DNA of 64,000 bases from Escherichia coli (GTDB lineage Bacteria > Pseudomonadota > Gammaproteobacteria > Enterobacterales > Enterobacteriaceae). The notes beneath the pieces were generated by a model. The model made no database searches, was not told the DNA's origin, and saw only the letters and a list, made by a program, of their open reading frames with translations. Position 1 is the first letter of the stretch. Each line of letters opens with the position of its first letter. Positions 17,946 through 64,000 of the stretch are shown piece after piece. The stretch lies in NCBI RefSeq assembly GCF_003334315.1, contig NZ_QOWR01000005.1. One strand, written 5' to 3'. Both the position numbers and the translations under genes were made by a program.

Positions 17946-17955
17946 GGTGATTTCC

Positions 17956-28720: not shown

Positions 28721-28735
28721 AAGACAGATTACCAG

Positions 28736-28816
28736 GCCTGATAAGACGCGTGAGCGTCGCATCAGGCATCGTTCACCATTGCCGGATGCGGCGTGAACGC
28801 CTTATCCGGCCTACGG
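28736..28816. repeat. REP/BIME elements (two units)
   Basis: gcctgataagacgcgtgagcgtcgcatcaggc and gccggatgcggcgtgaacgccttatccggcctacgg. Confidence 0.85.
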
Positions 28817-43150: not shown

Positions 43151-43438
43151 AGGAAATACTCCTTGAAAAGTAAAGTGTTAGATGAGTGCGTTAATTCACA
43201 CTTCTGAGAAATTTCGCTAAACGCATCAAAAAAGCATAGCAGACAGGCATGGTATTGCTGGATTAAGCAGGTAACATCAGTGTTATAGGATTATTACCAA
43301 AACATTATATTAATGGTGAGAGTTTGGACTTGCTCAAAGTCTGTAGACTCCGGCAAGGTAATAATGTGCGCCACGTTGTGGGCAGGGGCTGTTGCCCACA
43401 CACTTTATTTGTGAACGTTACGTGAAAGGAACAACCAA

Positions 43439-45718: not shown

Positions 45719-45736
45719 TTCTTTTTTTAACTCTCA

Positions 45737-45764
45737 CGCTTACCCTGAATATTCAGGGTAAGCG
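45737..45764 (+). terminator. perfect 28-bp palindrome downstream of maeB (probable terminator hairpin, or operator)
   Basis: cgcttaccctgaat|attcagggtaagcg, perfect 14-bp arms, 19 nt after the maeB stop, followed only by gttt. Confidence 0.5.
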
Positions 45765-46011
45765 GTTTAGCTGCAATATATTAGTAAAGCTTATTACTGA
45801 GTTTGCGAATAATAAAAAAAGCAGTATATAAAATATCTCGAGATTATTTTATTTATATTCATGCGTCGCATATGAAAGTTTATTCATAACAGTAAATATC
45901 TCTCCATTCTTAGTGATCTACCTCACCTTTTAAACGCGCTTGCCGAATTTTGTTATTTACTCTGACGAAAAATTGTCACGATACACGAAAGTTTTTCACA
46001 GGCGGCGACTC

Positions 46012-46347
46012 ATGGATAAAGAACGCATCATTCAGGAATTTGTGCCCGGCAAACAGGTCACGCTGGCGCATCTCATCGCGCATCCCGGCGAGGAACTGGC
46101 GAAGAAAATCGGCGTTCCGGATGCTGGCGCAATCGGCATTATGACGCTAACTCCCGGCGAAACGGCGATGATCGCCGGTGATTTAGCATTGAAAGCCGCT
46201 GATGTGCATATCGGTTTTCTCGACCGTTTTAGCGGCGCGCTGGTGATTTATGGCTCGGTGGGTGCAGTAGAAGAAGCGTTATCACAAACCGTCAGTGGTT
46301 TAGGTCGCTTATTAAATTATACGCTTTGTGAAATGACCAAAAGTTAA
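46012..46347 (+). CDS. eutS: BMC shell protein EutS
   Basis: 111 codons from ATG 46012: [50 protein letters not shown]... Confidence 0.92.
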
Positions 46348-46359
46348 TACGAGGCATTC

Positions 46360-46839
46360 ATGAAACGAATTGCGTTTGTGGGTACCGTCGGGGCAGGGAA
46401 AACAACGTTATTTAATGCGTTGCAGGGGAATTATACCCTCGCCAGAAAAACACAGGTCGTGGAATTTAATGATAAGGGCGATATTGATACGCCGGGTGAA
46501 TATTTTAGCCATCCCCGCTGGTATCACGCCTTAATTACCACGCTACAGGATGTGGACATGCTGATCTATGTCCACGGCGCGAATGACCCGGAAAGTCGGT
46601 TGCCTGCCGGGTTGCTGGATATTGGCGTCAGCAAACGGCAAATCGCCGTTATCAGTAAAACGGACATGCCGGATGCTGACGTCGCCGCAACGCGAAAGTT
46701 ATTGCTTGAGACGGGCTTCGAAGAGCCGATTTTCGAGCTAAACAGCCACGACCCGCAAAGCGTGCAGCAACTGGTGGATTATCTGGCATCTCTCACCAAA
46801 CAGGAGGAAGCAGGTGAAAAAACTCATCACAGCGAATGA
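46360..46839 (+). CDS. eutP: EutP acetate-kinase-type GTPase/ATPase
   Basis: 159-codon ORF MKRIAFVGTVGAGKTTLFNALQG... (P-loop GAGKTT). Confidence 0.92.
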   Translation: MKRIAFVGTVGAGKTTLFNALQGNYTLARKTQVVEFNDKGDIDTPGEYFSHPRWYHALITTLQDVDMLIYVHGANDPESRLPAGLLDIGVSKRQIAVISKTDMPDADVAATRKLLLETGFEEPIFELNSHDPQSVQQLVDYLASLTKQEEAGEKTHHSE

Positions 46840-47503
46840 TATTCGTGAAGCACACGCGCGCGGCGAACAGGCAATGTCCGTGGTTCTGCGCGCCAGCATT
46901 ATTACCCCGGAAGCCCGTGAAGTGGCAGATCTGTTGGGTTTTACCATCACCGAATGCGAGGAATCGACACCAGCAACGGTATCTGTGCCCGTAGAGAAAA
47001 CCGAAAGCCAGCGTATCCGCGAAACCATTATCGCCCAGCTACCGGAAGGCCAGTTTACCGAAAGCCTGGTCGCGCAGCTGATGGAAAAAGTGATGAAGGA
47101 AAAACAGTCGCTGGAGCAGGGCGCAATGCAGCCGAGCTTCAAATCGGTGACCGGCAAAGGCGGCATCAAAGTGATTGATGGCAGTAGCGTCAAGTTTGGT
47201 CGTTTCGATGGCGCACAGCCACACTGCGTCGGATTAACGGATTTGGTTACCGGAGACGACGGCAGCAGCATGGCCGCCGGTTTTATGCAGTGGGACAACG
47301 CCTTCTTCCCGTGGACCCTGAACTACGACGAAATCGACATGGTGCTGGAAGGGGAGCTGCATGTTCGCCACGAAGGCGAAACCATGATCGCCAAAGCAGG
47401 CGACGTGATGTTTATCCCGAAAGGCTCCAGCATCGAATTTGGTACGACATCCAGCGTGAAATTCCTGTATGTCGCCTGGCCAGCTAACTGGCAATCCCTA
47501 TGA
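46814..47503 (+). CDS. eutQ: EutQ (cupin-fold acetate kinase)
   Basis: 229-codon ORF from GTG 46814 (MKKLITANDIREAHARGEQAMSVVLRASIITPEAREV...), overlapping eutP 3' end by 26 nt; exact start uncertain. Confidence 0.88.
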   Translation: MKKLITANDIREAHARGEQAMSVVLRASIITPEAREVADLLGFTITECEESTPATVSVPVEKTESQRIRETIIAQLPEGQFTESLVAQLMEKVMKEKQSLEQGAMQPSFKSVTGKGGIKVIDGSSVKFGRFDGAQPHCVGLTDLVTGDDGSSMAAGFMQWDNAFFPWTLNYDEIDMVLEGELHVRHEGETMIAKAGDVMFIPKGSSIEFGTTSSVKFLYVAWPANWQSL

Positions 47504-48303
47504 AAGATTTCATCACCGAAGCATGGCTAAGAGCGAACCATACGCTCAGCGAAGGCGCAGAGATCCATCTTCCTGCGCACAGTCGCCTGACGCCCTCTGC
47601 CCGGGAGTTACTGGAAAGCCGCCATCTGCGCATCAAGTTTATTGACGAGCAGGGCAGCCTGTTTGTTGACGATGAACAGCAGCAGCCACAGCCCGTTCAC
47701 GGGCTGACCAGTAGCGATGAACATCCGCAGGCGTGCTGCGAACTGTGCCGCCAGCCGGTGGCAAAAAAGCCGGATACGCTGACTCACCTGTCGGCGGAAA
47801 AAATGGTCGCCAAAAGCGATCCGCGTCTGGGTTTTCGCGCGGTTCTCGACAGCACCATTGCGCTGGCAGTGTGGCTGCAAATTGAACTGGCGGAACCGTG
47901 GCAGCCGTGGCTGGCGGATATCCGTTCGCGTCTTGGCAACATTATGCGTGCCGATGCGCTGGGGGAACCGCTGGGCTGCCAGGCGATTGTCGGGCTTTCT
48001 GACGAAGATCTGCATCGGCTTTCTCATCAGCCGCTGCGCTATCTCGACCACGATCATCTGGTGCCGGAAGCCAGCCACGGGCGCGATGCTGCGTTGCTCA
48101 ATCTGCTACGCACCAAAGTGCGGGAAACCGAAACCGTAGCGGCGCAGGTGTTTATAACCCGCAGTTTTGAAGTATTACGCCCGGACATTTTGCAGGCACT
48201 GAACCGCCTTTCGAGCACGGTCTACGTGATGATGATCCTGAGCGTAACGAAGCAGCCGCTAACGGTGAAGCAGATCCAACAACGACTGGGGGAAACGCAA
48301 TGA
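47500..48303 (+). CDS. eutT: EutT corrinoid adenosyltransferase
   Basis: 267-codon [50 protein letters not shown]...; ATGA overlap with eutQ. Confidence 0.92.
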
Positions 48304-49316
48304 TTATTGAACGTTGTCGTGAACTGGCGTTGCGAGCGCCCGCCAGAGTGGTTTTTCCGGATGCGTTAGATCAACGTGTGCTGAAAGCTGCGCAATATTT
48401 ACATCAACAAGGTCTGGCAACGCCCATTCTGGTCGCCAATCCGTTTGAACTTCGTCAGTTTGCGCTCAGTCATGGCGTAGCGATGGACGGGCTACAGGTT
48501 ATTGATCCGCATGGCAACCTCGCAATGCGGGAAGAATTTGCTCATCGCTGGCTGGCCCGCGCGGGCGAAAAAACGCCGCCGGATGCGCTGGAAAAACTTA
48601 CCGATCCGCTGATGTTCGCCGCAGCAATGGTCAGCGCCGGTAAAGCGGATGTCTGTATCGCGGGCAACCTCTCTTCCACGGCGAATGTGCTGCGTGCCGG
48701 ATTACGCATTATCGGCTTGCAGCCAGGCTGTAAAACGCTCTCTTCCATTTTCCTGATGTTGCCACAGTACAGCGGCCCGGCGTTGGGCTTTGCCGATTGC
48801 AGCGTGGTGCCACAGCCGACGGCGGCGCAACTGGCGGATATCGCGCTTGCCAGTGCCGAAACCTGGCGCGCCATCACCGGAGAAGAGCCGCGCGTGGCGA
48901 TGCTGTCGTTTTCCAGCAATGGTAGCGCCCGTCACCCCTGTGTTGCTAACGTCCAGCAGGCGACAGAAATCGTCCGTGAGCGCGCACCAAAGCTGGTGGT
49001 GGATGGCGAGTTACAGTTTGACGCCGCCTTCGTGCCGGAAGTGGCGGCGCAAAAAGCGCCTGCCAGCCCGCTACAGGGCAAGGCCAATGTGATGGTTTTT
49101 CCGTCGCTGGAAGCCGGAAATATTGGTTACAAAATCGCACAACGACTCGGCGGATATCGTGCCGTCGGGCCACTGATACAAGGACTTGCCGCGCCGATGC
49201 ACGATCTCTCTCGTGGTTGTAGCGTGCAGGAAATTATCGAGCTGGCGCTGGTGGCAGCTGTGCCGCGTCAGACAGAAGTGAACCGCGAAAGCAGTTTACA
49301 AACACTGGTTGAATGA
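48300..49316 (+). CDS. eutD: phosphotransacetylase EutD (EutI)
   Basis: 338-codon [51 protein letters not shown]...; ATGA overlap with eutT. Confidence 0.94.
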
Positions 49317-49354
49317 ACGGTCCCGTTCTGGACCCTGATAAAGAGGAAAGCACA

Positions 49355-49648
49355 ATGGAAGCATTAGGAATGATCGAAACCCGGGGCCTGGTTGCACTGA
49401 TTGAGGCTTCTGACGCGATGGTGAAAGCTGCGCGCGTCAAGCTGGTTGGTGTTAAGCAGATTGGCGGCGGCCTGTGTACTGCCATGGTTCGTGGTGATGT
49501 TGCAGCCTGTAAAGCCGCGACCGATGCAGGTGCCGCAGCGGCACAGCGTATCGGCGAGCTGGTATCTGTACACGTTATCCCGCGTCCGCACGGCGACCTG
49601 GAAGAAGTCTTCCCGATCGGCCTGAAAGGCGATAGCAGCAACCTGTAA
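49355..49648 (+). CDS. eutM: BMC major shell protein EutM
   Basis: 97 codons from ATG 49355: [49 protein letters not shown]...; SD aagagg upstream. Confidence 0.95.
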
Positions 49649-49754
49649 TCACCCTGTGTGACGTCGATTCGGGCGTCACGCTCTCTCCTTTTTCATTTTA
49701 CCTTCTGCGGAGGGTAGGGGGAGCTTTTACCTGAAATACGCCACGGAGGCGGGT

Positions 49755-50042
49755 ATGAAACTGGCAGTCGTCACTGGACAAATTGTTTGTACCGTACGCC
49801 ATCACGGACTGGCGCATGACAAATTGCTGATGGTGGAAATGATTGATCCACAAGGTAATCCTGACGGGCAATGCGCCGTCGCCATCGACAATATTGGCGC
49901 GGGAACCGGGGAGTGGGTGTTACTGGTGAGTGGCAGTTCCGCCCGCCAGGCGCATAAAAGCGAAACGTCACCGGTCGATCTGTGCGTGATTGGCATTGTC
50001 GATGAGGTGGTGTCTGGCGGTCAGGTAATTTTCCACAAATAA
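49755..50042 (+). CDS. eutN: BMC vertex protein EutN
   Basis: 95-codon ORF MKLAVVTGQIVCTVRHHGLAHDKLLMVEMIDPQGNPDGQCAVAIDNIGAG... Confidence 0.94.
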   Translation: MKLAVVTGQIVCTVRHHGLAHDKLLMVEMIDPQGNPDGQCAVAIDNIGAGTGEWVLLVSGSSARQAHKSETSPVDLCVIGIVDEVVSGGQVIFHK

Positions 50043-50053
50043 GGCAGAACATC

Positions 50054-51457
50054 ATGAATCAACAGGATATTGAACAGGTGGTGAAAGCGGTACTGCTGAA
50101 AATGCAAAGCAGTGACACGCCGTCCGCCGCCGTTCATGAGATGGGCGTTTTCGCGTCCCTGGATGACGCCGTTGCGGCAGCCAAAGTCGCCCAGCAAGGG
50201 TTAAAAAGCGTGGCATTGCGCCAGTTAGCCATTGCTGCCATTCGTGAAGCAGGCGAAAAACACGCCAGAGATTTAGCGGAACTTGCCGTCAGTGAAACCG
50301 GCATGGGGCGCGTTGAAGATAAATTTGCAAAAAACGTCGCTCAGGCGCGCGGCACACCAGGCGTTGAGTGCCTCTCTCCGCAAGTGCTGACTGGCGACAA
50401 CGGCCTGACCCTAATTGAAAACGCACCCTGGGGCGTGGTGGCTTCGGTGACGCCTTCCACTAACCCGGCGGCAACCGTAATTAACAACGCCATCAGCCTG
50501 ATTGCCGCGGGCAACAGCGTCATTTTTGCCCCGCATCCGGCGGCGAAAAAAGTCTCCCAGCGGGCGATTACGCTGCTCAACCAGGCGATTGTTGCCGCAG
50601 GTGGGCCGGAAAACTTACTGGTTACTGTGGCAAATCCGGATATCGAAACCGCGCAACGCTTGTTCAAGTTTCCGGGTATCGGCCTGCTGGTGGTAACCGG
50701 CGGCGAAGCGGTAGTAGAAGCGGCGCGTAAACACACCAATAAACGTCTGATTGCCGCAGGCGCTGGCAACCCGCCGGTAGTGGTGGATGAAACCGCCGAC
50801 CTCGCCCGTGCCGCTCAGTCCATCGTCAAAGGCGCTTCTTTCGATAACAACATCATTTGTGCCGACGAAAAGGTACTGATTGTTGTTGATAGCGTAGCCG
50901 ATGAACTGATGCGTCTGATGGAAGGCCAGCACGCGGTGAAACTGACCGCAGAACAGGCGCAGCAGCTGCAACCGGTGTTGCTGAAAAATATCGACGAGCG
51001 CGGAAAAGGCACCGTCAGCCGTGACTGGGTTGGTCGCGACGCAGGCAAAATCGCGGCGGCAATCGGCCTTAAAGTTCCGCAAGAAACGCGCCTGCTGTTT
51101 GTGGAAACCACCGCAGAACATCCGTTTGCCGTGACTGAACTGATGATGCCGGTGTTGCCCGTCGTGCGCGTCGCCAACGTGGCGGATGCCATTGCGCTAG
51201 CGGTGAAACTGGAAGGCGGTTGCCACCACACGGCGGCAATGCACTCGCGCAACATCGAAAACATGAACCAGATGGCGAATGCTATTGATACCAGCATTTT
51301 CGTTAAGAACGGACCGTGCATTGCCGGGCTGGGGCTGGGCGGGGAAGGCTGGACCACCATGACCATCACCACGCCAACCGGTGAAGGGGTAACCAGCGCG
51401 CGTACGTTTGTCCGTCTGCGTCGCTGTGTATTAGTCGATGCGTTTCGCATTGTTTAA
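50054..51457 (+). CDS. eutE: acetaldehyde dehydrogenase (acetylating) EutE
   Basis: 467-codon ORF MNQQDIEQVVKAVLLKMQSSDTPSAAVHEMGVFASLDDAVAAAKVAQQGL... Confidence 0.95.
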   Translation: MNQQDIEQVVKAVLLKMQSSDTPSAAVHEMGVFASLDDAVAAAKVAQQGLKSVALRQLAIAAIREAGEKHARDLAELAVSETGMGRVEDKFAKNVAQARGTPGVECLSPQVLTGDNGLTLIENAPWGVVASVTPSTNPAATVINNAISLIAAGNSVIFAPHPAAKKVSQRAITLLNQAIVAAGGPENLLVTVANPDIETAQRLFKFPGIGLLVVTGGEAVVEAARKHTNKRLIAAGAGNPPVVVDETADLARAAQSIVKGASFDNNIICADEKVLIVVDSVADELMRLMEGQHAVKLTAEQAQQLQPVLLKNIDERGKGTVSRDWVGRDAGKIAAAIGLKVPQETRLLFVETTAEHPFAVTELMMPVLPVVRVANVADAIALAVKLEGGCHHTAAMHSRNIENMNQMANAIDTSIFVKNGPCIAGLGLGGEGWTTMTITTPTGEGVTSARTFVRLRRCVLVDAFRIV

Positions 51458-51467
51458 GGAGTAACAG

Positions 51468-52304
51468 ATGGCGCACGACGAACAATGGCTCACCCCACGT
51501 CTGCAAACGGCGGCAACGCTGTGTAACCAGACGCCCGCCGCGACGGAATCTCCGCTGTGGCTGGGGGTGGATCTGGGCACCTGCGATGTGGTGTCGATGG
51601 TTGTCGACCGCGACGGTCAGCCAGTGGCGGTATGCCTCGACTGGGCCGATGTGGTTCGCGACGGCATCGTCTGGGATTTCTTCGGCGCTGTCACCATTGT
51701 TCGTCGCCATCTCGACACGCTCGAGCAGCAATTCGGTCGTCGTTTTAGCCATGCGGCGACTTCATTTCCTCCAGGTACGGACCCGCGTATTTCCATCAAC
51801 GTGCTGGAATCTGCCGGACTGGAAGTGAGCCATGTGCTGGATGAGCCAACCGCAGTTGCGGATCTGCTGCAACTGGACAACGCCGGTGTAGTGGATATCG
51901 GCGGCGGCACTACCGGCATTGCCATCGTGAAAAAGGGCAAGGTGACGTACTCGGCGGATGAAGCCACCGGCGGACATCACATCTCTCTGACTCTCGCCGG
52001 AAATCGCCGTATTTCGCTGGAAGAGGCGGAGCAGTACAAGCGCGGTCACGGTGAAGAGATTTGGCCTGCGGTGAAACCGGTGTACGAAAAAATGGCGGAC
52101 ATTGTCGCCCGGCATATTGAAGGGCAGGGCATTACTGATTTATGGCTGGCGGGCGGCTCTTGTTTGCAACCGGGCGTGGCGGAACTGTTTCGCAAACAAT
52201 TCCCGGCGTTACAGGTGCATTTACCGCAGCACAGTTTGTTTATGACCCCGCTGGCGATCGCCAGTAGTGGGCGAGAGAAAGCGGAGGGGCTATATGCAAA
52301 ATGA
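51468..52304 (+). CDS. eutJ: EutJ (DnaK/actin-fold chaperone-like)
   Basis: 278-codon ORF MAHDEQWLTPRLQTAATLCNQTPAATESPLWLGVDLGTCDVVSMVV... Confidence 0.93.
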   Translation: MAHDEQWLTPRLQTAATLCNQTPAATESPLWLGVDLGTCDVVSMVVDRDGQPVAVCLDWADVVRDGIVWDFFGAVTIVRRHLDTLEQQFGRRFSHAATSFPPGTDPRISINVLESAGLEVSHVLDEPTAVADLLQLDNAGVVDIGGGTTGIAIVKKGKVTYSADEATGGHHISLTLAGNRRISLEEAEQYKRGHGEEIWPAVKPVYEKMADIVARHIEGQGITDLWLAGGSCLQPGVAELFRKQFPALQVHLPQHSLFMTPLAIASSGREKAEGLYAK

Positions 52305-53481
52305 ATTGCAGACCGCGCTCTTTCAGGCGTTCGATACCCTGAATCTGCAACGGGTAAAAACATTTAGCGTTCCACCGGTGACGCTTTGCGGTCCGGGCGC
52401 GGTGAGCAGTTGCGGGCAGCAAGCGCATACGCGTGGGCTGAAACATCTGTTCGTGATGGCAGACAGCTTTTTGCATCAGGCGGGGATGACCGCCGGGCTG
52501 ACGCGCAGCCTGGCTGTTAAAGGCATCGCCATGACGCTCTGGCCATGTCCGGTGGGCGAACCGTGCATTACCGACGTGTGTGCAGCCGTGGCGCAGTTGC
52601 GTGAGTCAGGCTGTGATGGGGTGATCGCATTTGGCGGCGGCTCGGTGCTGGATGCGGCGAAAGCCGTGGCGTTGCTGGTGACGAACCCCGATAGCACGCT
52701 GGCAGAGATGTCAGAAACCAGCGTTCTGCAACCGCGCTTGCCGCTGATTGCTATTCCAACGACCGCCGGAACCGGCTCTGAAACCACCAATGTAACGGTG
52801 ATTATCGACGCGGTGAGCGGGCGCAAGCAGGTGTTAGCCCATGCCTCGCTGATGCCGGATGTGGCGATCCTCGACGCCGCATTGACCGAAGGTGTGCCGT
52901 CGCATGTCACGGCGATGACCGGCATTGATGCGTTAACCCATGCCATTGAAGCATACAGCGCCCTGAACGCTACACCGTTTACCGACAGCCTGGCGATTGG
53001 TGCCATTGCGATGATTGGCAAATCGCTGCCGAAAGCGGTGGGCTACGGTCACGACCTTGCCGCGCGCGAGAGCATGTTACTGGCTTCATGTATGGCGGGA
53101 ATGGCGTTTTCCAGTGCGGGTCTTGGGTTGTGCCACGCGATGGCGCATCAGCCGGGCGCGGCGCTGCATATTCCGCACGGTCTCGCGAACGCCATGTTGC
53201 TGCCAACGGTGATGGAATTTAACCGGATGGTTTGTCGTGAACGCTTTAGTCAGATTGGTCGGGCACTGCGAACTAAAAAATCCGACGATCGTGACGCTAT
53301 TAACGCGGTAAGTGAGCTGATTGCGGAAGTTGGGATTGGTAAACGACTGGGCGATGTTGGTGCGACATCTGCGCATTACGGCGCATGGGCGCAGGCCGCG
53401 CTGGAAGATATTTGTCTGCGCAGTAACCCGCGTACCGCCAGCCTGGAGCAGATTGTCGGCCTGTACGCAGCGGCGCAATAA
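52294..53481 (+). CDS. eutG: iron-containing alcohol dehydrogenase EutG
   Basis: 395 codons from ATG 52294: MQNELQTALFQAFDTLNLQRVKTFSVPPVTLCGPGAVSSCGQQ...; overlaps eutJ end by 11 nt. Confidence 0.93.
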   Translation: MQNELQTALFQAFDTLNLQRVKTFSVPPVTLCGPGAVSSCGQQAHTRGLKHLFVMADSFLHQAGMTAGLTRSLAVKGIAMTLWPCPVGEPCITDVCAAVAQLRESGCDGVIAFGGGSVLDAAKAVALLVTNPDSTLAEMSETSVLQPRLPLIAIPTTAGTGSETTNVTVIIDAVSGRKQVLAHASLMPDVAILDAALTEGVPSHVTAMTGIDALTHAIEAYSALNATPFTDSLAIGAIAMIGKSLPKAVGYGHDLAARESMLLASCMAGMAFSSAGLGLCHAMAHQPGAALHIPHGLANAMLLPTVMEFNRMVCRERFSQIGRALRTKKSDDRDAINAVSELIAEVGIGKRLGDVGATSAHYGAWAQAALEDICLRSNPRTASLEQIVGLYAAAQ

Positions 53482-53483
53482 AT

Positions 53484-53567
<84 letters not shown>

Positions 53568-53597
53568 ATAAATAACAACTAACAGGGAGTAAAGGCG

Positions 53598-54824
53598 ATG
53601 GGAATTAACGAAATCATCATGTACATCATGATGTTCTTTATGCTGATAGCTGCCGTAGACAGGATCCTGTCGCAGTTCGGCGGTTCTGCTCGTTTCCTCG
53701 GTAAGTTCGGTAAAAGTATCGAAGGATCAGGCGGTCAGTTCGAAGAAGGCTTTATGGCAATGGGCGCACTGGGCCTGGCGATGGTCGGTATGACCGCGCT
53801 GGCACCGGTACTGGCTCACGTTCTCGGGCCGGTAATTATTCCGGTTTACGAAATGCTCGGCGCTAACCCATCGATGTTCGCCGGAACACTGCTGGCGTGC
53901 GATATGGGCGGCTTCTTCCTCGCCAAAGAGCTGGCGGGCGGCGACGTAGCCGCGTGGCTATACTCTGGGTTAATTCTCGGGTCGATGATGGGGCCAACGA
54001 TTGTGTTTTCCATTCCGGTGGCGCTCGGCATTATCGAACCTTCTGACCGTCGTTATCTGGCGCTCGGCGTGCTGGCGGGCATTGTGACCATTCCGATTGG
54101 TTGTATCGCTGGTGGTCTGGTTGCTATGTACTCCGGTGTGCAGATCAACGGCCAGCCGGTGGAATTCACTTTCGCCCTGATCCTGATGAACATGATCCCG
54201 GTGATCATTGTTGCGATTCTGGTGGCGCTGGGGCTGAAATTCATCCCGGAAAAAATGATCAACGGCTTCCAGATCTTCGCCAAATTCCTCGTTGCATTGA
54301 TCACCCTCGGTCTTGCCGCTGCGGTAGTGAAATTCCTGCTTGGCTGGGAACTGATCCCCGGTCTGGATCCTATCTTTATGGCCCCTGGCGATAAACCCGG
54401 TAAGGTGATGCGCGCCATTGAAGTTATCGGTTCTATCTCCTGCGTTCTGTTAGGGGCGTATCCGATGGTGCTGCTGCTGACTCGCTGGTTTGAAAAACCG
54501 CTGATGAGCGTCGGTAAAGTACTGAATATGAACAACATCGCGGCAGCCGGCATGGTGGCAACGCTTGCCAACAACATCCCGATGTTCGGCATGATGAAGC
54601 AGATGGATACCCGCGGCAAAGTCATCAACTGCGCCTTCGCCGTTTCCGCTGCTTTCGCCCTGGGCGACCACTTAGGCTTCGCCGCTGCCAACATGAACGC
54701 CATGATCTTCCCGATGATTGTCGGCAAGTTGATCGGCGGCGTAACGGCGATTGGCGTGGCGATGATGCTGGTGCCAAAAGAAGACGCGACCGCGACTAAA
54801 ACCGAAGCGGAGGCACAATCGTGA
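53598..54824 (+). CDS. eutH: ethanolamine permease/facilitator EutH
   Basis: 408-codon ORF MGINEIIMYIMMFFMLIAAVDRILSQFGGSARFLGKFGKSIEG..., polytopic. Confidence 0.95.
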   Translation: MGINEIIMYIMMFFMLIAAVDRILSQFGGSARFLGKFGKSIEGSGGQFEEGFMAMGALGLAMVGMTALAPVLAHVLGPVIIPVYEMLGANPSMFAGTLLACDMGGFFLAKELAGGDVAAWLYSGLILGSMMGPTIVFSIPVALGIIEPSDRRYLALGVLAGIVTIPIGCIAGGLVAMYSGVQINGQPVEFTFALILMNMIPVIIVAILVALGLKFIPEKMINGFQIFAKFLVALITLGLAAAVVKFLLGWELIPGLDPIFMAPGDKPGKVMRAIEVIGSISCVLLGAYPMVLLLTRWFEKPLMSVGKVLNMNNIAAAGMVATLANNIPMFGMMKQMDTRGKVINCAFAVSAAFALGDHLGFAAANMNAMIFPMIVGKLIGGVTAIGVAMMLVPKEDATATKTEAEAQS

Positions 54825-56224
54825 ACACTCGCCAGCTATTGAGCGTCGGTATCGATATCGGCACCACCACCACCCAGGTGATTTTCTCCCGGCTGGAGCT
54901 GGTTAACCGTGCGGCGGTGTCGCAGGTGCCGCGCTACGAATTCATTAAACGCGAAATTAGCTGGCAAAGTCCGGTGTTCTTTACCCCTGTCGATAAACAG
55001 GGCGGTTTAAAAGAAGCGGAACTGAAAACCTTAATACTCGAGCAATATCATGCTGCGGGTATTGAGCCGGAAAGCGTTGATTCTGGTGCCATCATCATCA
55101 CCGGTGAAAGCGCGAAAACCCGCAATGCTCGCCCGGCGGTGATGGCGCTCTCTCAGTCGCTGGGCGATTTTGTCGTTGCCAGCGCCGGGCCGCACCTCGA
55201 ATCCGTGATCGCCGGTCACGGAGCCGGGGCACAAACCCTTTCTGAACAACGGCTGTGTCGGGTACTGAATATCGACATCGGCGGTGGCACCGCGAACTAC
55301 GCCCTGTTCGATGCCGGAAAAATCAGCGGCACTGCCTGCCTCAACGTCGGTGGTCGCCTGCTGGAAACCGACAGCCACGGGCGCGTGGTTTACGCTCATA
55401 AACCGGGGCAGATGATTGTGGATGAGTGCTTCGGTGCAGGCACTGACGCCCGTTCGCTGACCGGCGCGCAGCTGGTGCAGGTTACCCGGCGGATGGCGGC
55501 GCTGATTGTCGAAGTGATTGACGGAACGCTTTCGCCGCTCGCGCAGGCATTGATGCAAACCGGTTTGCTGCCCGCAGGTGTTACGCCCGAAATCATTACG
55601 CTTTCTGGAGGCGTGGGCGAATGTTATCGCCACCAGCCCGCCGACCCGTTCTGTTTTGCCGATATTGGCCCACTTCTGGCAACGGCGCTGCATGACCATC
55701 CGCGCCTGCGTGAGATGAATGTGCAGTTTCTGGCGCAAACCGTACGCGCCACGGTGATTGGCGCGGGTGCACATACCCTTTCGCTCTCTGGCAGCACAAT
55801 CTGGCTGGAGGGCGTACAACTGCCGCTGCGCAATTTGCCGGTGGCGATCCCGATTGATGAAACGGATCTGGTGAGTGCCTGGCAACAGGCGCTGCTTCAG
55901 CTGGATCTTGATCCCAAAACTGACGCGTACGTGCTGGCGCTTCCCGCCTCGCTGCCTGTGCGTTACGCCGCGGTACTGACGGTCATCAACGCGCTGGTCG
56001 ATTTCGTCGCGCGTTTTCCGAATCCGCATCCCCTGCTGGTGGTGGCCGGGCAGGACTTTGGTAAAGCTCTGGGCATGTTGTTGCGCCCACAGCTACAACA
56101 ACTCCCGTTGGCAGTCATTGACGAAGTGATTGTCCGCGCGGGGGACTATATCGACATTGGTACGCCTCTTTTTGGCGGATCGGTTGTGCCGGTGACGGTG
56201 AAATCACTCGCATTTCCTTCCTGA
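54821..56224 (+). CDS. eutA: ethanolamine ammonia-lyase reactivase EutA
   Basis: 467-codon ORF MNTRQLLSVGIDIGTTTTQVIFSRLELVNRAAVSQVPRYEFIKREISW...; GTGA overlap with eutH. Confidence 0.95.
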   Translation: MNTRQLLSVGIDIGTTTTQVIFSRLELVNRAAVSQVPRYEFIKREISWQSPVFFTPVDKQGGLKEAELKTLILEQYHAAGIEPESVDSGAIIITGESAKTRNARPAVMALSQSLGDFVVASAGPHLESVIAGHGAGAQTLSEQRLCRVLNIDIGGGTANYALFDAGKISGTACLNVGGRLLETDSHGRVVYAHKPGQMIVDECFGAGTDARSLTGAQLVQVTRRMAALIVEVIDGTLSPLAQALMQTGLLPAGVTPEIITLSGGVGECYRHQPADPFCFADIGPLLATALHDHPRLREMNVQFLAQTVRATVIGAGAHTLSLSGSTIWLEGVQLPLRNLPVAIPIDETDLVSAWQQALLQLDLDPKTDAYVLALPASLPVRYAAVLTVINALVDFVARFPNPHPLLVVAGQDFGKALGMLLRPQLQQLPLAVIDEVIVRAGDYIDIGTPLFGGSVVPVTVKSLAFPS

Positions 56225-56235
56225 GGGAACGACTT

Positions 56236-57597
56236 ATGAAACTAAAGACCACATTGTTCGGCAATGTATATCAGTTTAAGGATGTAAAAGAGGTGCTGGC
56301 TAAAGCCAACGAACTGCGTTCGGGGGATGTGCTGGCGGGCGTTGCAGCGGCAAGCTCACAGGAGCGCGTGGCGGCAAAGCAGGTGTTGTCGGAAATGACC
56401 GTAGCGGACATCCGCAATAATCCGGTGATTGCCTATGAAGATGACTGCGTGACGCGGCTGATTCAGGACGACGTTAACGAAACGGCCTACAACCAGATTA
56501 AAAACTGGAGCATCAGCGAACTGCGTGAGTATGTGCTGAGCGATGAAACCAGCGTGGACGACATTGCCTTTACCCGCAAAGGGCTGACCTCGGAAGTGGT
56601 CGCGGCGGTAGCGAAGATTTGCTCCAACGCGGACCTGATCTACGGCGCGAAGAAAATGCCGGTAATCAAAAAGGCCAATACCACCATCGGTATTCCGGGC
56701 ACCTTTAGCGCCCGTTTGCAGCCGAACGATACCCGTGACGACGTGCAAAGTATCGCTGCGCAAATCTATGAAGGGCTTTCCTTTGGGGTGGGCGATGCGG
56801 TGATCGGCGTTAACCCGGTAACTGACGACGTGGAAAACTTAAGCCGCGTGCTGGATACCATTTATGGCGTGATCGACAAATTCAACATCCCAACTCAGGG
56901 CTGCGTACTGGCGCACGTCACCACCCAGATCGAAGCGATTCGTCGCGGCGCGCCTGGCGGACTGATTTTCCAGAGTATCTGTGGCAGCGAAAAAGGGCTG
57001 AAAGAGTTTGGCGTGGAACTGGCGATGCTCGACGAAGCGCGCGCAGTGGGCGCAGAGTTCAATCGTATCGCCGGGGAAAACTGCCTCTACTTCGAAACCG
57101 GACAAGGCTCTGCGCTATCCGCTGGCGCTAACTTCGGCGCTGACCAGGTGACGATGGAAGCACGTAACTATGGGCTGGCGCGTCATTACGATCCGTTTAT
57201 CGTCAACACCGTGGTCGGCTTTATTGGGCCGGAGTATCTCTACAACGACCGCCAGATTATCCGTGCTGGCTTAGAAGATCACTTTATGGGCAAGCTGAGC
57301 GGCATCTCTATGGGCTGTGACTGCTGCTACACCAACCACGCTGACGCTGACCAGAACCTCAACGAAAACCTGATGATCCTGCTCGCCACCGCAGGCTGCA
57401 ACTACATCATGGGGATGCCGCTGGGTGATGACATCATGCTCAACTACCAGACCACCGCATTCCACGATACCGCCACTGTGCGTCAGTTACTCAACCTGCG
57501 TCCGTCACCGGAGTTTGAACGCTGGCTGGAAAGCATGGGCATTATGGCAAACGGTCGCCTGACCAAACGGGCGGGCGATCCGTCACTGTTCTTCTGA
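56236..57597 (+). CDS. eutB: ethanolamine ammonia-lyase large subunit
   Basis: 453-codon ORF MKLKTTLFGNVYQFKDVKEVLAKANELRSGDVLAGVAAASSQERVAAKQ...; starts 12 nt after eutA stop. Confidence 0.96.
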   Translation: MKLKTTLFGNVYQFKDVKEVLAKANELRSGDVLAGVAAASSQERVAAKQVLSEMTVADIRNNPVIAYEDDCVTRLIQDDVNETAYNQIKNWSISELREYVLSDETSVDDIAFTRKGLTSEVVAAVAKICSNADLIYGAKKMPVIKKANTTIGIPGTFSARLQPNDTRDDVQSIAAQIYEGLSFGVGDAVIGVNPVTDDVENLSRVLDTIYGVIDKFNIPTQGCVLAHVTTQIEAIRRGAPGGLIFQSICGSEKGLKEFGVELAMLDEARAVGAEFNRIAGENCLYFETGQGSALSAGANFGADQVTMEARNYGLARHYDPFIVNTVVGFIGPEYLYNDRQIIRAGLEDHFMGKLSGISMGCDCCYTNHADADQNLNENLMILLATAGCNYIMGMPLGDDIMLNYQTTAFHDTATVRQLLNLRPSPEFERWLESMGIMANGRLTKRAGDPSLFF

Positions 57598-57617
57598 TGA
57601 CGCGGAGATAACACATC

Positions 57618-58505
57618 ATGGATCAAAAACAGATTGAAGAAATTGTACGCAGCGTGATGGCGTCAATGGGACAAACGGCCCCCGCGCCGTCAGAAGCAAA
57701 GTGCGCCACCACCAACTGTGCGGCACCGGTGACCTCGGAAAGCTGTGCGCTGGATTTAGGTTCCGCTGAAGCAAAAGCGTGGATTGGTGTTGAAAACCCG
57801 CATCGCGCAGACGTATTAACAGAACTGCGCCGCAGCACCGTGGCCCGCGTTTGTACCGGTCGTGCCGGTCCGCGTCCACGTACCCAGGCGCTGCTGCGTT
57901 TCCTGGCCGATCACTCTCGTTCGAAAGATACCGTACTGAAAGAAGTGCCGGAAGAGTGGGTGAAAGCGCAGGGCTTGCTGGAAGTACGCTCTGAAATTAG
58001 CGACAAAAATCTCTACCTGACTCGCCCGGATATGGGCCGCCGCCTGTGTGCAGAAGCTGTTGAAGCGCTGAAAGCACAGTGTGTTGCTAATCCGGACGTA
58101 CAGGTCGTTATTTCTGATGGCCTGTCAACTGATGCCATCACCGTCAACTACGAAGAGATCCTGCCGCCGCTGATGGCGGGCCTGAAACAGGCCGGGCTGA
58201 AAGTCGGCACGCCATTCTTTGTTCGTTATGGTCGCGTGAAGATTGAAGATCAGATCGGTGAGATCCTCGGCGCGAAAGTGGTGATCCTGCTGGTGGGGGA
58301 ACGTCCGGGGTTAGGGCAGTCAGAAAGCCTCTCCTGCTACGCCGTTTACTCGCCGCGTATGGCGACCACCGTTGAGGCCGATCGCACCTGTATCTCTAAC
58401 ATTCACCAGGGCGGCACGCCGCCGGTTGAAGCCGCAGCCGTCATTGTGGATTTGGCGAAACGTATGCTGGAGCAGAAAGCATCCGGCATCAACATGACCC
58501 GATAA
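57618..58505 (+). CDS. eutC: ethanolamine ammonia-lyase small subunit
   Basis: 295-codon [52 protein letters not shown]... Confidence 0.96.
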
Positions 58506-58514
58506 GGAGGCATC

Positions 58515-59174
58515 ATGCCAGCTTTAGATTTGATTCGACCGTCGGTAACCGCCATGCGGGTGATTGCCTCCGTTAACGCTGAATTTGCGCGTGAACTAAA
58601 ATTGCCGCCGCATATTCGTAGCCTCGGGCTGATTTCTGCCGATTCTGACGACGTCACCTACATTGCGGCTGACGAAGCGACCAAACAAGCGATGGTCGAA
58701 GTGGTATATGGTCGCTCGCTGTATGCGGGAGCGGCACACGGCCCGTCACCGACTGCCGGTGAAGTGCTGATTATGCTTGGTGGGCCAAACCCGGCGGAAG
58801 TGCGTGCAGGTCTGGATGCGATGATTGCGCATATTGAAAATGGCGCAGCTTTCCAGTGGGCTAATGACGCGCAAGATACGGCATTCCTGGCACATGTAGT
58901 TTCGCGTACCGGTTCTTATCTCTCATCAACCGCCGGGATCACGCTTGGCGATCCGATGGCGTATCTGGTGGCACCGCCGCTGGAAGCGACCTACGGCATT
59001 GATGCAGCGTTGAAATCTGCCGACGTACAGCTGGTGACCTATGTCCCGCCACCGTCTGAAACCAACTACTCGGCAGCATTTTTAACCGGTAGCCAGGCCG
59101 CGTGTAAAGCAGCCTGTAACGCCTTTACCGATGCAGTGCTGGAAATCGCGCGTAATCCAATCCAGCGTGCGTAA
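58515..59174 (+). CDS. eutL: BMC shell protein EutL (tandem BMC domains)
   Basis: 219-codon [49 protein letters not shown]... Confidence 0.95.
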
Positions 59175-59186
59175 CGGAGGTTGCCG

Positions 59187-59687
59187 ATGATCAATGCACT
59201 GGGATTGCTGGAAGTGGACGGCATGGTCGCCGCGATAGATGCAGCGGATGCCATGCTCAAAGCAGCTAACGTTCGTCTGCTCAGTCACGAAGTGCTTGAC
59301 CCTGGTCGCTTAACGCTGGTGGTGGAAGGCGATCTGGCGGCGTGTCGTGCGGCGCTGGACGCAGGTTGTGCTGCCGCGATGCGTACCGGGCGTGTCATCA
59401 GCCGCAAGGAGATCGGTCGGCCAGACGATGACACCCAGTGGCTGGTTACTGGCTTTAACCGCCAGCCGAAGCAACCCGTAAGGGAACCCGACGCGCCAGT
59501 TATCGTCGCGGAATCTGCTGACGAGTTGTTGGCGCTGTTAACATCAGTACGTCAGGGAATGACGGCAGGAGAAGTGGCTGCCCACTTTGGCTGGCCGCTG
59601 GAAAAAGCCAGAAATGCGCTCGAACAGCTCTTTTCTGCCGGGACGTTACGTAAACGCAGTAGTCGTTATCGTCTCAAGCCCCATTAA
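59187..59687 (+). CDS. eutK: BMC shell protein EutK
   Basis: 166 codons from ATG 59187 (SD ggagg 59176-59180): MINALGLLEVDGMVAAIDAADAMLKAANVRLLSHEVLDPGRLTLVVEGD... Confidence 0.93.
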   Translation: MINALGLLEVDGMVAAIDAADAMLKAANVRLLSHEVLDPGRLTLVVEGDLAACRAALDAGCAAAMRTGRVISRKEIGRPDDDTQWLVTGFNRQPKQPVREPDAPVIVAESADELLALLTSVRQGMTAGEVAAHFGWPLEKARNALEQLFSAGTLRKRSSRYRLKPH

Positions 59688-59732
59688 CCTGTCGGAGGTG
59701 CCGGGTGTCCTACAACACCCGGCATTAACATC

Positions 59733-60785
59733 ATGAAAAAGACCCGTACAGCCAATTTGCACCATCTTTATCATGAACCCTTACCCGAAAACCTGAAGCT
59801 CACGCCGAAGGTCGAAGTGGATAATGTTCATCAACGACAGACAACGGATGTCTATGAACATGCTTTAACGATTACCGCCTGGCAGCAGATTTACGATCAG
59901 CTGCATCCGGGCAAGTTTCATGGTGAATTTACGGAAATTCTACTCGATGATATTCAGGTTTTTCGTGAATACACCGGTCTGGCGCTGCGTCAGTCGTGCC
60001 TGGTCTGGCCGAACTCGTTCTGGTTTGGCATTCCGGCGACGCGCGGTGAGCAGGGATTTATCGGTTCGCAATGTCTGGGAAGCGCGGAAATCGCCACCCG
60101 CCCTGGTGGCACTGAATTTGAACTGAGCACGCCGGATGATTACACGATCCTGGGCGTGGTGCTTTCTGAAGATGTCATCACCCGGCAGGCTAACTTTTTG
60201 CATAACCCGGATCGGGTATTACATATGTTGCGTAACCAGTCGGCGCTGGAAGTGAAAGAGCAGCATAAAGCCGCGCTGTGGGGCTTTGTCCAACAGGCGC
60301 TGGCGACGTTTTGCGAGAATCCGGAAAATCTCCATCAGCCTGCAGTGCGAAAAGTGCTGGGGGATAATTTGCTAATGGCGATGGGGGCCATGCTGGAAGA
60401 AGCGCAACCAATGGTGACGGCGGAAAGCATCAGTCATCAGAGTTACCGTCGATTGCTTTCCCGCGCCCGTGAATATGTGCTGGAAAACATGTCCGAACCG
60501 GTGACGGTGCTGGATTTGTGTAATCAACTGCATGTCAGCCGCCGCACGCTACAAAACGCGTTTCACGCTATTTTAGGCATTGGCCCGAACGCGTGGCTGA
60601 AACGCATTCGCCTGAACGCCGTACGCCGCGAACTGATAAGTCCGTGGTCGCAAAGTATGACGGTAAAAGACGCCGCCATGCAGTGGGGATTCTGGCATCT
60701 GGGGCAATTTGCCACGGATTACCAGCAGCTGTTTGCCGAGAAGCCGTCGTTGACGTTGCATCAGCGGATGCGGGAATGGGGGTGA
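59733..60785 (+). CDS. eutR: AraC-family transcriptional activator of the eut operon
   Basis: 350-codon [55 protein letters not shown]...; C-terminal AraC HTH. Confidence 0.95.
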
Positions 60786-60790
60786 GGGAG

Positions 60791-61693
<903 letters not shown>

Positions 61694-62563
61694 TTATCGC
61701 TTTTTCGAATGTGCTTTCTGGTTGTCGAACCAGTGGAAATAACTGATCACGCCTTCAGCAATCGCTGTGGCGATTTTCTGACGAAACGCCGCCGTGCCTA
61801 ACAGCCGCTCTTCTTCCGGGTTGGTGATAAACGAGGTTTCCACCAGCACCGAAGGAACCGACGGCGATTTCAACACCACAAACGCGGCTTGTTCGGTGTT
61901 GCGGCTGTGCAGTTTATGCACCGGCTTAATCTTTTTCAGAATATGCGAGCCGAGCGTCAGGCTGTTTTTAATAGTATCGGTTTGCACCAGATCAAATAGC
62001 ACTTGCTGCAATAGGTGATCCTTGTCAGTCGCCTTTTTACCGGCAACTTCATCGGCGCGGTTTTCGCGTTCAGACAGGTATTTCGCCATTGCGCTACTTG
62101 CCCCACGGTTAGAGAGGGCAAATACCGAAGCACCGGCAGCTTTCGGGTTGGTAAAGCCATCGGCATGAATTGACATAAACAGATCTGCGCCATGTTTATG
62201 GGCGATTTCAACGCGATCGTAAAGTGGGATAAACGTATCGCCAGAACGCGTTAAACGCGCATCAATCCCATGATTACGCAAAATGGAACGGACGTTTTTA
62301 GCAATCGCCAGCACCACATGTTTTTCTTTCGAACCGTTGCGTCCGATCGCTCCGGTATCAATTCCGCCGTGGCCTGGATCGAGAACAACGACACGTTTGC
62401 CGCCAGATTTTTTGGCTTTCGGCTTGCTGTGTCCGTTGCTGGTTTTTAAAGGTTCGTCTTTGGCGATGGCTTGCGACATTCCTGACAACGTCAGGGCAGC
62501 CAAACCGGCTTTCAGCACCTGGCGGCGCGAAGTGAGTGTTTTTAGTGGTTTAAAAGTGCTCAT
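61694..62563 (-). CDS. amiA: N-acetylmuramoyl-L-alanine amidase A (Tat-exported)
   Basis: 289-codon ORF MSTFKPLKTLTSRRQVLKAGLAALTLSGMSQAIA... with twin-arginine signal SRRQVLK. Confidence 0.96.
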   Translation of the reverse strand: MSTFKPLKTLTSRRQVLKAGLAALTLSGMSQAIAKDEPLKTSNGHSKPKAKKSGGKRVVVLDPGHGGIDTGAIGRNGSKEKHVVLAIAKNVRSILRNHGIDARLTRSGDTFIPLYDRVEIAHKHGADLFMSIHADGFTNPKAAGASVFALSNRGASSAMAKYLSERENRADEVAGKKATDKDHLLQQVLFDLVQTDTIKNSLTLGSHILKKIKPVHKLHSRNTEQAAFVVLKSPSVPSVLVETSFITNPEEERLLGTAAFRQKIATAIAEGVISYFHWFDNQKAHSKKR

Positions 62564-62776
62564 ACGGCCTGAGTTGTAATAATAAAGTTCCAGATGTTAT
62601 ATCGTATCGCGTAATCCGTTACGACGGTTTGATGTTGAGAATTGTTTTACTTTTCATTTCAATAGTTGACAACTCCCCATTATGCCACTTTTTCAACCGA
62701 TTTTCGTCAGATATTGGCTAATTCGACCGTTCACGCCATAATCAGCCTTTTAACCCGCAAAAAGGTAACGAATACC

Positions 62777-63202
62777 ATGGAGATACGCGTATTTCGCCAG
62801 GAAGATTTCGAAGAGGTCATCACCCTTTGGGAGCGTTGCGACTTGCTGCGTCCGTGGAACGATCCGGAAATGGACATCGAGCGTAAGATGAACCATGACG
62901 TCAGTTTGTTTCTGGTCGCTGAGGTAAACGGTGAAGTGGTCGGAACGGTGATGGGCGGTTATGACGGGCATCGCGGGTCTGCTTATTATCTTGGCGTGCA
63001 TCCAGAGTTTCGTGGGCGTGGGATTGCCAATGCGTTGCTTAATCGGCTGGAGAAAAAGCTGATTGCTCGTGGCTGCCCGAAAATTCAGATCAATGTGCCG
63101 GAAGATAACGACATGGTGCTCGGAATGTATGAACGCCTGGGATATGAACACGCCGACGTGCTGAGTCTGGGTAAGCGTTTGATTGAAGATGAAGAGTACT
63201 GA
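62777..63202 (+). CDS. ypeA: GNAT-family N-acetyltransferase
   Basis: 141 codons from ATG 62777: [41 protein letters not shown]...; track ORF 62666 trimmed. Confidence 0.92.
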
Positions 63203-63638
63203 GTTCCATCCTGTCCATTATGATGCGCACGGACGCCTGCGTTTACCCTTGCTCTTCTGGCTTGTGCTATTGCTTCAGGCGCGAACCTGGGTGCTGTTTG
63301 TCATTGCCGGTGCGTCGCGTGAGCAGGGTACTGCGCTGCTAAATCTGTTTTATCCCGATCACGATAATTTCTGGCTGGGGCTGATTCCTGGCATTCCGGC
63401 GGTGCTGGCGTTTTTGTTGAGCGGTCGGCGGGCTACGTTTCCTCGCACCTGGCGTGTACTCTATTTTCTGTTGCTGTTGGCGCAGGTGGTTTTACTTTGC
63501 TGGCAACCGTGGCTGTGGCTGAACGGTGAATCCGTTAGCGGTATCGGTCTGGCGCTGGTAGTGGCGGATATTGTGGCGTTAATCTGGCTGCTGACCAATC
63601 GACGTTTACGCGCTTGTTTTAATGAAGTAAAAGAATAA
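63189..63638 (+). CDS. yfeZ: inner-membrane protein, function unknown
   Basis: 149 codons from ATG 63189: [41 protein letters not shown]...; overlaps ypeA end by 14 nt. Confidence 0.9.
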
Positions 63639-63698
63639 CGGCACTTTTTGGTGAATTTGCACTCCAAGCAACGTTATTGAATAACCAAAGGAAGTGAC

Positions 63699-64000
63699 AT
63701 GAAATCGCTGCGTTTAATGTTATGCGCTATGCCATTGATGCTGACCGGCTGTTCCACGATGTCGTCAGTTAACTGGTCTGCCGCTAACCCGTGGAACTGG
63801 TTTGGGTCGTCCACCAAAGTGAGCGAGCAGGGCGTTGGTGAATTAACGGCGTCCACACCACTGCAAGAACAAGCCATTGCCGATGCGCTTGATGGCGATT
63901 ATCGCCTGCGCAGCGGAATGAAAACCGCGAACGGAAACGTGGTGCGCTTTTTTGAAGTGATGAAGGGCGACAACGTGGCGATGGTGATTAACGGCGATCA
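63699..64000 (+). CDS. yfeY: outer-membrane lipoprotein YfeY, N-terminal part only (runs off window end)
   Basis: ATG 63699 with SD aaggaag; MKSLRLMLCAMPLMLTGCSTMSSVNWSAANPWNWFGSSTKVSEQGVGELT...; lipobox LTGC. Confidence 0.88.
   Translation, partial: MKSLRLMLCAMPLMLTGCSTMSSVNWSAANPWNWFGSSTKVSEQGVGELTASTPLQEQAIADALDGDYRLRSGMKTANGNVVRFFEVMKGDNVAMVINGD

Follow-up and report, generated by a model that had tools for sequence, protein, structure and literature searches.

The closest described counterparts of the locus analyzed here are the EUT1-type eut operons of Salmonella enterica LT2, Escherichia coli Nissle 1917, UPEC and EHEC, in which 17 genes lie in a fixed order on a single strand, with eutA adjacent to eutB, eutR at the 3' end, and maeB and hemF as the flanking genes (PMC7617246, PMC11334477); the comparison with the Salmonella operon is established in the same papers. 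Transcription of the operon starts at a main EutR-dependent promoter (PI), which is induced by ethanolamine together with B12, while a weak constitutive internal promoter (PII) serves eutR (PMC7617246). In some E. coli, the operon is interrupted directly after the eutA stop codon, with an 8-bp duplication and a prevalence of 8% (PMC6379469), and the eutA/eutB site has been labeled a "prophage insertion hot spot" (PMC6652756). In BW25113, eutB is uninduced and microcompartments are absent (PMC7617246), and scarless removal of the prophage from this strain restored growth on ethanolamine (PMC11334477). By experiment, the uninterrupted arrangement of eut is the functional one (PMC11334477, PMC7617246).

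We analyzed a 64,000-nucleotide stretch of E. coli DNA (the window), and found all 17 genes, eutSPQTDMNEJGHABCLKR, to be present, co-directional and in canonical order at 46012-60785 (Table 1), between maeB on one side and hemF on the other. Both the limits and the gene order agree with the original prediction, as judged by protein alignment and by the RefSeq annotation of strain 14EC001, in which the order is the same. The genes are tightly packed (spacers of -26 to +116 bp), and the 17 proteins are full length and 94-100% identical to their K-12 counterparts; alignment to the K-12 proteins found no frameshifts or internal stops in any of the 17 genes. EutB and EutC, the two subunits of the signature enzyme ethanolamine ammonia-lyase, and the reactivase EutA match NCBIfam models above the curated cut-offs (EutA: NF007991, 1064 bits vs a cut-off of 799, full length; EutB: NF011649, 664.7 bits vs 554). 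The shell genes eutS, M, N, L and K are likewise all present, four of their products being identical to K-12 and EutL matching at 218/220 positions. Compared with the EUT1-type operons, the window differs in minor alleles only, namely in EutQ, with 229 rather than 233 residues, and in the eutG-eutH spacer, which has a single REP pair in place of two. The eutQ difference from K-12 is an in-frame one of 12 bp (four residues), with indels near 46993-46997.

Table 1. Features of the eut locus in the window, with their coordinates and relation to K-12.
Feature	Coordinates	Strand	Remarks
maeB-eutS intergenic region, expected PI location	45719..46011	+	293 bp, maeB stop to eutS start
eutS, shell protein	46012..46347	+	111 aa, 100% identical to K-12; 14EC001 RefSeq annotation
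eutP	46360..46839	+	159 aa, 156/160 aligned positions as in K-12; annotation
eutQ	46814..47503	+	229 aa vs 233 in K-12; intact in 14EC001 annotation
eutT	47500..48303	+	267 aa, as long as in K-12; no internal stop
eutD, phosphotransacetylase	48300..49316	+	338 aa, 100% identical to K-12
eutM, shell protein	49355..49648	+	97 aa, 100% identical to K-12
10-bp stable hairpin, then T-rich tract	49656..49681	+	just 3' of eutM; best terminator-like match in operon
eutN, shell vertex protein	49755..50042	+	95 aa, 100% identical to K-12
eutE, acetaldehyde dehydrogenase	50054..51457	+	467 aa, 467/468 aligned positions as in K-12
eutJ	51468..52304	+	278 aa, 278/279 as in K-12
eutG, alcohol dehydrogenase	52294..53481	+	395 aa, 392/396 as in K-12
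eutG-eutH spacer, one REP pair	53482..53597	+	two tandem ~100-bp copies in K-12
eutH, ethanolamine permease	53598..54824	+	NF011665, 872.5 bits vs cut-off 574; 408/409 as in K-12
eutA, ethanolamine ammonia-lyase reactivase	54821..56224	+	467 aa, GTG start; 464/468 as in K-12
attB core CTTCCTGA	56217..56224	+	8 bp, includes eutA stop TGA; unoccupied; used by CPZ-55/related IntZ-type islands
eutA-eutB spacer GGGAACGACTT	56225..56235	+	11 bp; eutB ribosome-binding site
eutB, ethanolamine ammonia-lyase large subunit	56236..57597	+	453 aa, ATG start; 100% identical to K-12
eutC, ethanolamine ammonia-lyase small subunit	57618..58505	+	NF003971, 339.6 bits vs 230; 295/296 as in K-12
eutL, shell protein	58515..59174	+	219 aa, 218/220 as in K-12
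eutK, shell protein	59187..59687	+	166 aa, 100% identical to K-12
eutR, AraC-type operon activator	59733..60785	+	350 aa, 350/351 as in K-12; annotation

Nothing separates eutA from eutB except 11 bp, as had been proposed and as both the ORF list and the spacer sequence bear out; neither an integrase gene nor other island DNA lies in this gap, and the ribosome-binding site of eutB (GAGGGAA) shares bases with the eutA stop codon. By contrast, the annotation of MG1655 (NC_000913.3) places the "cryptic prophage CPZ-55" (2558691-2565480, 6,790 bp, intZ and yffL-yffS) between eutB and eutA, as the original prediction had stated; the opposite case, an MG1655 with eutA and eutB adjacent, was checked and does not hold. 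In MG1655, CPZ-55 is inserted directly 3' of the eutA stop, its genes are transcribed opposite to eut, and CTTCCTGA stands at both of its ends, whereas the window has one core and no insert. Since CTTCCTGA is single here and duplicated at the ends of the K-12 prophage, the window has an empty attB. The published duplication, 5'-TCAGGAAG-3', is on the opposite strand and matches CTTCCTGA (PMC6379469). The junction flanks are identical among MG1655, BW25113 and the window, and comparison with attL and attR of K-12 and of strain EC291 showed that the sequences to the left and right of the core in the window match those just outside the integrated element. The spacer GGGAACGACTT recurs unchanged in the K-12 flank of CPZ-55 nearest eutB and at the C600 junction. 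Where the element is integrated, the eutB ribosome-binding site is kept on the side that faces eutB. Collectively, we put at about 95% the probability that the window is chromosomal DNA of a non-K-12 E. coli with a standard, intact 17-gene eut operon, in which the eutA-eutB junction is an unoccupied attB; none of the analyses run gave a result that contradicts this anatomy.

Alignment of the whole window to MG1655 (blastn against 2549000-2630000) gave three collinear segments, at window positions 1-53567, 53483-56224 and 56202-64000, with identities of 98.99%, 99.13% and 98.40%. The sole large break falls at 56224/56225, where K-12 has ~6.8 kb extra, which is the gap that had been predicted for this alignment. 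The window and MG1655 also differ by the indel in eutQ, by the number of REP copies (53483-53567 of the window aligns twice in K-12) and by frameshifts in hyfC/hyfD, besides ~636 mismatches over the 64 kb. As this is a comparative observation, chance is not at issue.

The original prediction had reasoned from the lack of a prophage to a non-K-12 origin. Its conclusion stands, because ~1% of bases differ from MG1655, but the step that led to it does not, because K-12 derivatives too can have an empty site. We found at least 10 of them (among them DH1, DH5alpha/NEB 5-alpha, C600, RV308, ER2796, ER3413, GM4792, RR1 and HST04), each 100% identical to a scarless K-12 junction, and in ER2796 the empty site has been described as the result of precise excision (PMC4444293). 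That the window is itself a K-12 laboratory derivative from which CPZ-55 was precisely excised has next to no probability. Such derivatives do exist, and in DH1, DH5alpha, C600, RV308, ER2796, RR1 and XL1-Blue the junction is letter for letter that of the window (PMC4444293); however, they carry no substitutions relative to MG1655 near the site, against a divergence of 1-1.6% for the window. C600, for example, has 0 mismatches to MG1655 in 4,025 bp and no substitutions over the 8 kb around the junction. Members of the K-12 lineage are expected to be essentially 100% identical to MG1655 outside known strain-specific lesions, and the window, at 98.4-99.1% identity with the further differences listed above, is not; its closest matches are natural isolates, for example 14EC001 (6 mismatches in 20 kb), S171-1 and W5-6. 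An excised K-12 derivative as the source of the window was therefore ruled out by this divergence. More generally, because many K-12 derivatives have lost CPZ-55 precisely, its presence or absence is not a marker of the K-12 lineage, and caution against such use is the practical addition of this work.

How common the uninterrupted state is was assessed in complete E. coli genomes with a 211-bp query that spans the junction. A first run had used a 2-kb query; the shorter one was adopted because, with 2 kb, a break at some other point of eutA or eutB might also be counted as "split". The two counts were equal: 4,965 of the 5,426 genomes (91.5%) have a contiguous eutA-eutB junction, which agrees with the published prevalence of the interruption. 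Of the genomes, 213 have a full CPZ-55, and ~204 others have partial matches, mostly intZ-like. The operon of the window is therefore ordinary, since ~92% of sequenced E. coli share its state and MG1655 is the documented exception. The census also bears on the suggestion that a collapsed or mis-joined contig hides an insertion here. We found no point in support of such an artefact; the same junction recurs in thousands of independent complete genomes, and many closed assemblies are identical or near-identical to the window over 20 kb, which leaves this explanation with a vanishingly small likelihood.

CPZ-55 is not the only element that uses this site. Strain EC291 (99.2-99.7% identity with the window near the site) carries an unrelated ~10.3-kb island at the CTTCCTGA core, with CTTCCTGA likewise at both of its ends; among the cargo of this island are murI, an IS1, a second copy of gadC and an integrase gene ~86% identical (DNA) to K-12 intZ. 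IntZ-type islands such as this one and the "novel prophage" of UPEC U71 share the attB core of the window, where it is unoccupied (PMC6652756), but they differ in cargo, and the window has none of that of EC291. The close similarity of EC291 to the window, together with the precise, scar-free excision seen in K-12 lines, raises the idea that the site in the window is secondarily empty, that is, that an IntZ-type island once integrated in this lineage and was later precisely excised. A never-occupied and an excised site look alike in sequence, yet parsimony favors the former, since 91.5% of the genomes have an empty site and these are spread over all identity bands, and we consider past occupancy improbable; the functional reading would be unchanged either way.

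It might also be that ethanolamine catabolism is switched on and off reversibly by an integrase acting at the eutA/eutB junction, with the window in the ON state. By analogy with "active lysogeny", IntZ-type islands might integrate and thereby silence eutBCLKR, and precise excision would restore expression. The use of one 8-bp core by several islands, the scarless excision in many K-12 lines and the retention of the eutB ribosome-binding site beside the integrated element are compatible with such a switch; the window itself adds nothing toward regulated switching, and we regard the proposal as unlikely. The anatomy, the insertion point, the integrity of the 17 genes and the population frequency given above come from the present analysis; the promoter model and the need of an uninterrupted operon for growth on ethanolamine are taken from the literature.

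In MG1655, BW25113 and ~8% of E. coli, CTTCCTGA is the site occupied by CPZ-55 (6.8 kb) or by some other island whose tyrosine integrase is of the IntZ type. With no insert in the window, eutB follows eutA after 11 bp, which include its ribosome-binding site, and transcription from the EutR-activated, ethanolamine/B12-dependent eutS promoter could continue into eutBCLKR. Such readthrough would supply the EutBC lyase together with two shell proteins, EutL and EutK, and would also feed back on eutR. From the sequence, we infer that the source strain of the window is Eut-positive; unlike MG1655 and BW25113, it should be capable of assembling the ethanolamine microcompartment and of using ethanolamine in the presence of B12. 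The eut locus of the MG1655 reference is not typical, so a metabolic model that relies on this genome can give a wrong picture. Earlier papers already report where the element inserts, the duplication of 8 bp, the prevalence of ~8%, the name of hot spot and the consequence for function, and the importance of the present observation is small, its content being found in PMC6379469, PMC6652756, PMC7617246 and PMC11334477.

The original prediction had further held that a promoter next to eutS should be able to drive the whole operon as a single unit. This is the accepted model, but the prediction left out PII. A consensus scan for sigma-70 promoters and intrinsic terminators over 45500-61000 found 3 promoter-like sites (vs 8.8 expected) and 22 terminator-like sites (vs 18.0 ± 4.6 in shuffles, hence no excess); neither the region upstream of eutS nor the eutA-eutB junction had a hit. 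The lack of a sigma-70 consensus upstream of eutS is expected because the promoter is activator-dependent. As the scan found no site, PI was placed from the literature model (PMC7617246), in the intergenic region whose ~125 bp next to eutS match K-12 exactly. When the literature was searched for the eutS promoter or EutR binding site of E. coli, only papers on Salmonella and Klebsiella came up. The hairpin 3' of eutM folds stably (-29.6 kcal/mol over 81 nt, z = -3.35), and it is possibly an attenuator or mRNA stabilizer. The eutG-eutH spacer also folds, at -39.9 kcal/mol (z = -2.42). At the eutM hairpin and the REP pair, part of the transcription could terminate or segments of the mRNA could differ in stability, so that a single transcript may be too simple a picture. 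Rfam, searched over the whole window at gathering thresholds, matched no family within the eut operon or close to it; the only match was a REP-derived naRNA4 at 28735-28811.

The eutA and eutB genes of the window lie next to each other without intervening DNA, and the observation of an uninterrupted junction is confirmed. The six-frame ORF list and the sequence of the 11-base spacer (GGGAACGACTT) gave exactly the gene coordinates of the original prediction, and the ORFs flanking the pair were identified as EutH and EutC (NCBIfam). A Shine-Dalgarno-like GAGGGAA lies within the junction bases and overlaps the eutA stop codon. A scan for terminators gave no sense-strand hit at this junction.

Features of the eut region and of other loci in the window
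Feature	Position	Strand	Description
hyfC, hyfD (hydrogenase 4 subunits)	15544-17966	-	one base fewer each than in MG1655
naRNA4 (RF02564)	28735-28811	both	92.6 and 60.8 bits; sole Rfam match in the window
hairpin then T-rich tract	49656-49681		directly 3' of eutM; 10 pairs, 6 G-C; G+C-rich
eutG-eutH spacer	53482-53597		116 bp; one REP pair
eutA	54821-56224	+	467-aa ORF; NCBIfam NF007991, 1064 bits (cut-off 799), end to end
8-bp core	56217-56224		contains the eutA stop codon
eutB	56236-57597	+	453-aa ORF; NCBIfam NF011649, 664.7 bits (cut-off 554)

In the K-12 reference MG1655 (NC_000913.3), a 6,790-bp element (RefSeq feature 'cryptic prophage CPZ-55', 2558691-2565480) lies between eutB (b2441) and eutA (b2451); its genes, intZ and yffL-yffS, run antiparallel to eut. 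Alignment of the whole window to MG1655 2549000-2630000 by blastn returned three collinear segments (1-53567, 98.99%; 53483-56224, 99.13%; 56202-64000, 98.40% identity). The sole large discontinuity was at 56224/56225, where the predicted gap of ~6.8 kb was found. In K-12, the prophage boundary falls between CATTTCCTTCCTGA and ATGCGG on the eutA side, and between GATTCTTCCTGA and GGGAACGACTTATG on the eutB side; across the same point, the sequence of the window is CATTTCCTTCCTGAGGGAACGACTTATG. The core CTTCCTGA is present in two copies in K-12 but only one in the window, hence the window has an empty attB, that is, an unoccupied integration site. That the site differs from MG1655 is textbook knowledge, described in at least eight papers and already examined by genome editing, and is not new.

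The original prediction had further reasoned that a window without the prophage must be non-K-12. Its conclusion holds, since the ~636 mismatches and several indels that separate the window from MG1655 rule out K-12 ancestry. The reasoning does not, because K-12 derivatives with an empty junction exist, and prophage absence therefore does not exclude K-12 ancestry. The C600 record (NZ_CM132660.1) has zero base substitutions relative to MG1655 over 8 kb round the eutA/eutB site (100% identity over 4,025 bp on the eutA side; four gap openings only on the eutB side), and its junction is empty and letter-for-letter the same as that of the window. A synthetic 3-kb query representing a scarlessly excised K-12 was also searched against the ecoli_genomes collection. 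It matched at 100% over its full length in at least 10 named K-12 derivatives (DH1, DH5alpha, NEB 5-alpha, C600, RV308, ER2796, ER3413, GM4792, RR1 and HST04). Several records labelled 'K-12 MG1655' (CP010438-CP010444) matched as well, pointing either to strains engineered to be prophage-free or to repeated spontaneous excision. Published descriptions report 'CPZ-55 (6.8 kb, precise excision)' for ER2796 (PMC4444293) and a missing CPZ-55 for RV308 (PMC4239343), XL1-Blue (PMC11148124) and RR1 (PMC5379014), and the W3110 stock of Jallet et al. is eut+ (PMC11334477). With this one logical correction to the K-12 step, the original interpretation is supported; 'unlike K-12' is true of MG1655 and BW25113, the strains that the wording should name.

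We then counted junction states in 5,426 complete E. coli genomes, using a 2-kb query and a 211-bp junction-spanning query. Both gave a contiguous junction in 4,965 genomes (91.5%); in ~458 the junction is split. Full-length CPZ-55 (≥80% coverage) was found in 213 genomes, 212 of them at ≥99% identity, and the carriers among the matches listed are mostly K-12 laboratory strains. A further ~204 genomes have partial matches alone (80-90% identity), chiefly to the intZ end. One of these, strain EC291 (NZ_AP027445.1), has a ~10.3-kb island at the same attB (13026-23330 in L002), flanked by the core CTTCCTGA as CPZ-55 is. Its integrase gene is intZ-type (~86% DNA identity), but the island is otherwise unrelated to CPZ-55; its acid-resistance-like cargo comprises an IS1, additional copies of murI (glutamate racemase) and of the antiporter gene gadC, and a decarboxylase pseudogene. 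Our results agree with the published prevalence of 8% (PMC6379469) and with the name 'prophage insertion hot spot' given to the site (PMC6652756). A reading in which IntZ-type islands reversibly switch ethanolamine catabolism would draw on the common core, excision without a scar and the retention of the eutB ribosome-binding site; we consider this very improbable, and the window itself lends it no support.

The 17-gene eut operon was intact. All 17 translated proteins are full length, free of internal stops and 94-100% identical to K-12, and their order is that of the RefSeq annotation of the near-identical strain 14EC001 (maeB, 17 eut genes, hemF, amiA), which differs from window 43000-63000 at 6 positions only. 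The sole length difference is in EutQ (229 aa versus 233 aa in K-12), owing to an in-frame 12-bp difference near 46993-46997, where the sequence around residue 55 is variable. Several EutQ substitutions cluster with it at ~residues 49-64; the remainder of the protein is nearly identical to K-12. All features defining an EUT1-type operon that sequence can test are present, and the locus is typical of this type, as in Salmonella LT2, Nissle 1917, UPEC and EHEC.

Promoter PI, 5' of eutS, transcribes the operon in the presence of both ethanolamine and B12, and eutR is driven by PII, a weak constitutive promoter (PMC7617246, Figure 1 legend). BW25113 showed an ethanolamine response in eutS and eutR but none in eutB, and was without microcompartments (PMC7617246). 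A consensus promoter scan found no promoter 5' of eutS and thus did not locate PI in the window, unsurprisingly for an activator-dependent promoter; in the ~125 bp directly 5' of eutS, the window does not differ from K-12. Terminator-like hits within the operon showed no excess over shuffled sequence (22 versus 18.0 ± 4.6). We infer that the source strain of the window is Eut-positive.

Spacing between eut genes ranges from -26 to +116 bp, and the two longest spacers, eutM-eutN and eutG-eutH, are both structured. The former (106 bp) contains the eutM hairpin (81-nt fold, -29.6 kcal/mol, z = -3.35), which may, as an attenuator or an mRNA stabilizer, favour EutM over the genes downstream. In the eutG-eutH spacer, the window has one REP pair where K-12, C600 and EC291 have two tandem ~100-bp copies (216 bp), a copy-number polymorphism with possible effects on mRNA stability or on the stoichiometry of EutH.

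Elsewhere in the window, naRNA4 is a REP-derived nucleoid-associated RNA. A 28-bp insertion relative to MG1655 at ~40146, in the tktB-ypfG intergenic region, consists of two similar 14-bp units (GCATCCGGCAATCAGCATCCGGCGATCA). The single-base differences in hyfC and hyfD (~16895 and ~17657) are in homopolymer runs (G7 to G6, C4 to C3); hyfC is split into 111-aa and 239-aa ORFs, and hyfD has a truncated 5' end. In CP53, a near-identical strain, both genes are in this state too and are 'frameshifted' according to RefSeq. The hyf operon of this lineage is therefore probably a cluster of pseudogenes, and the missing bases no sequencing error. The hyfC/hyfD segment had zero megablast match in ~1,129 of the 5,426 genomes.
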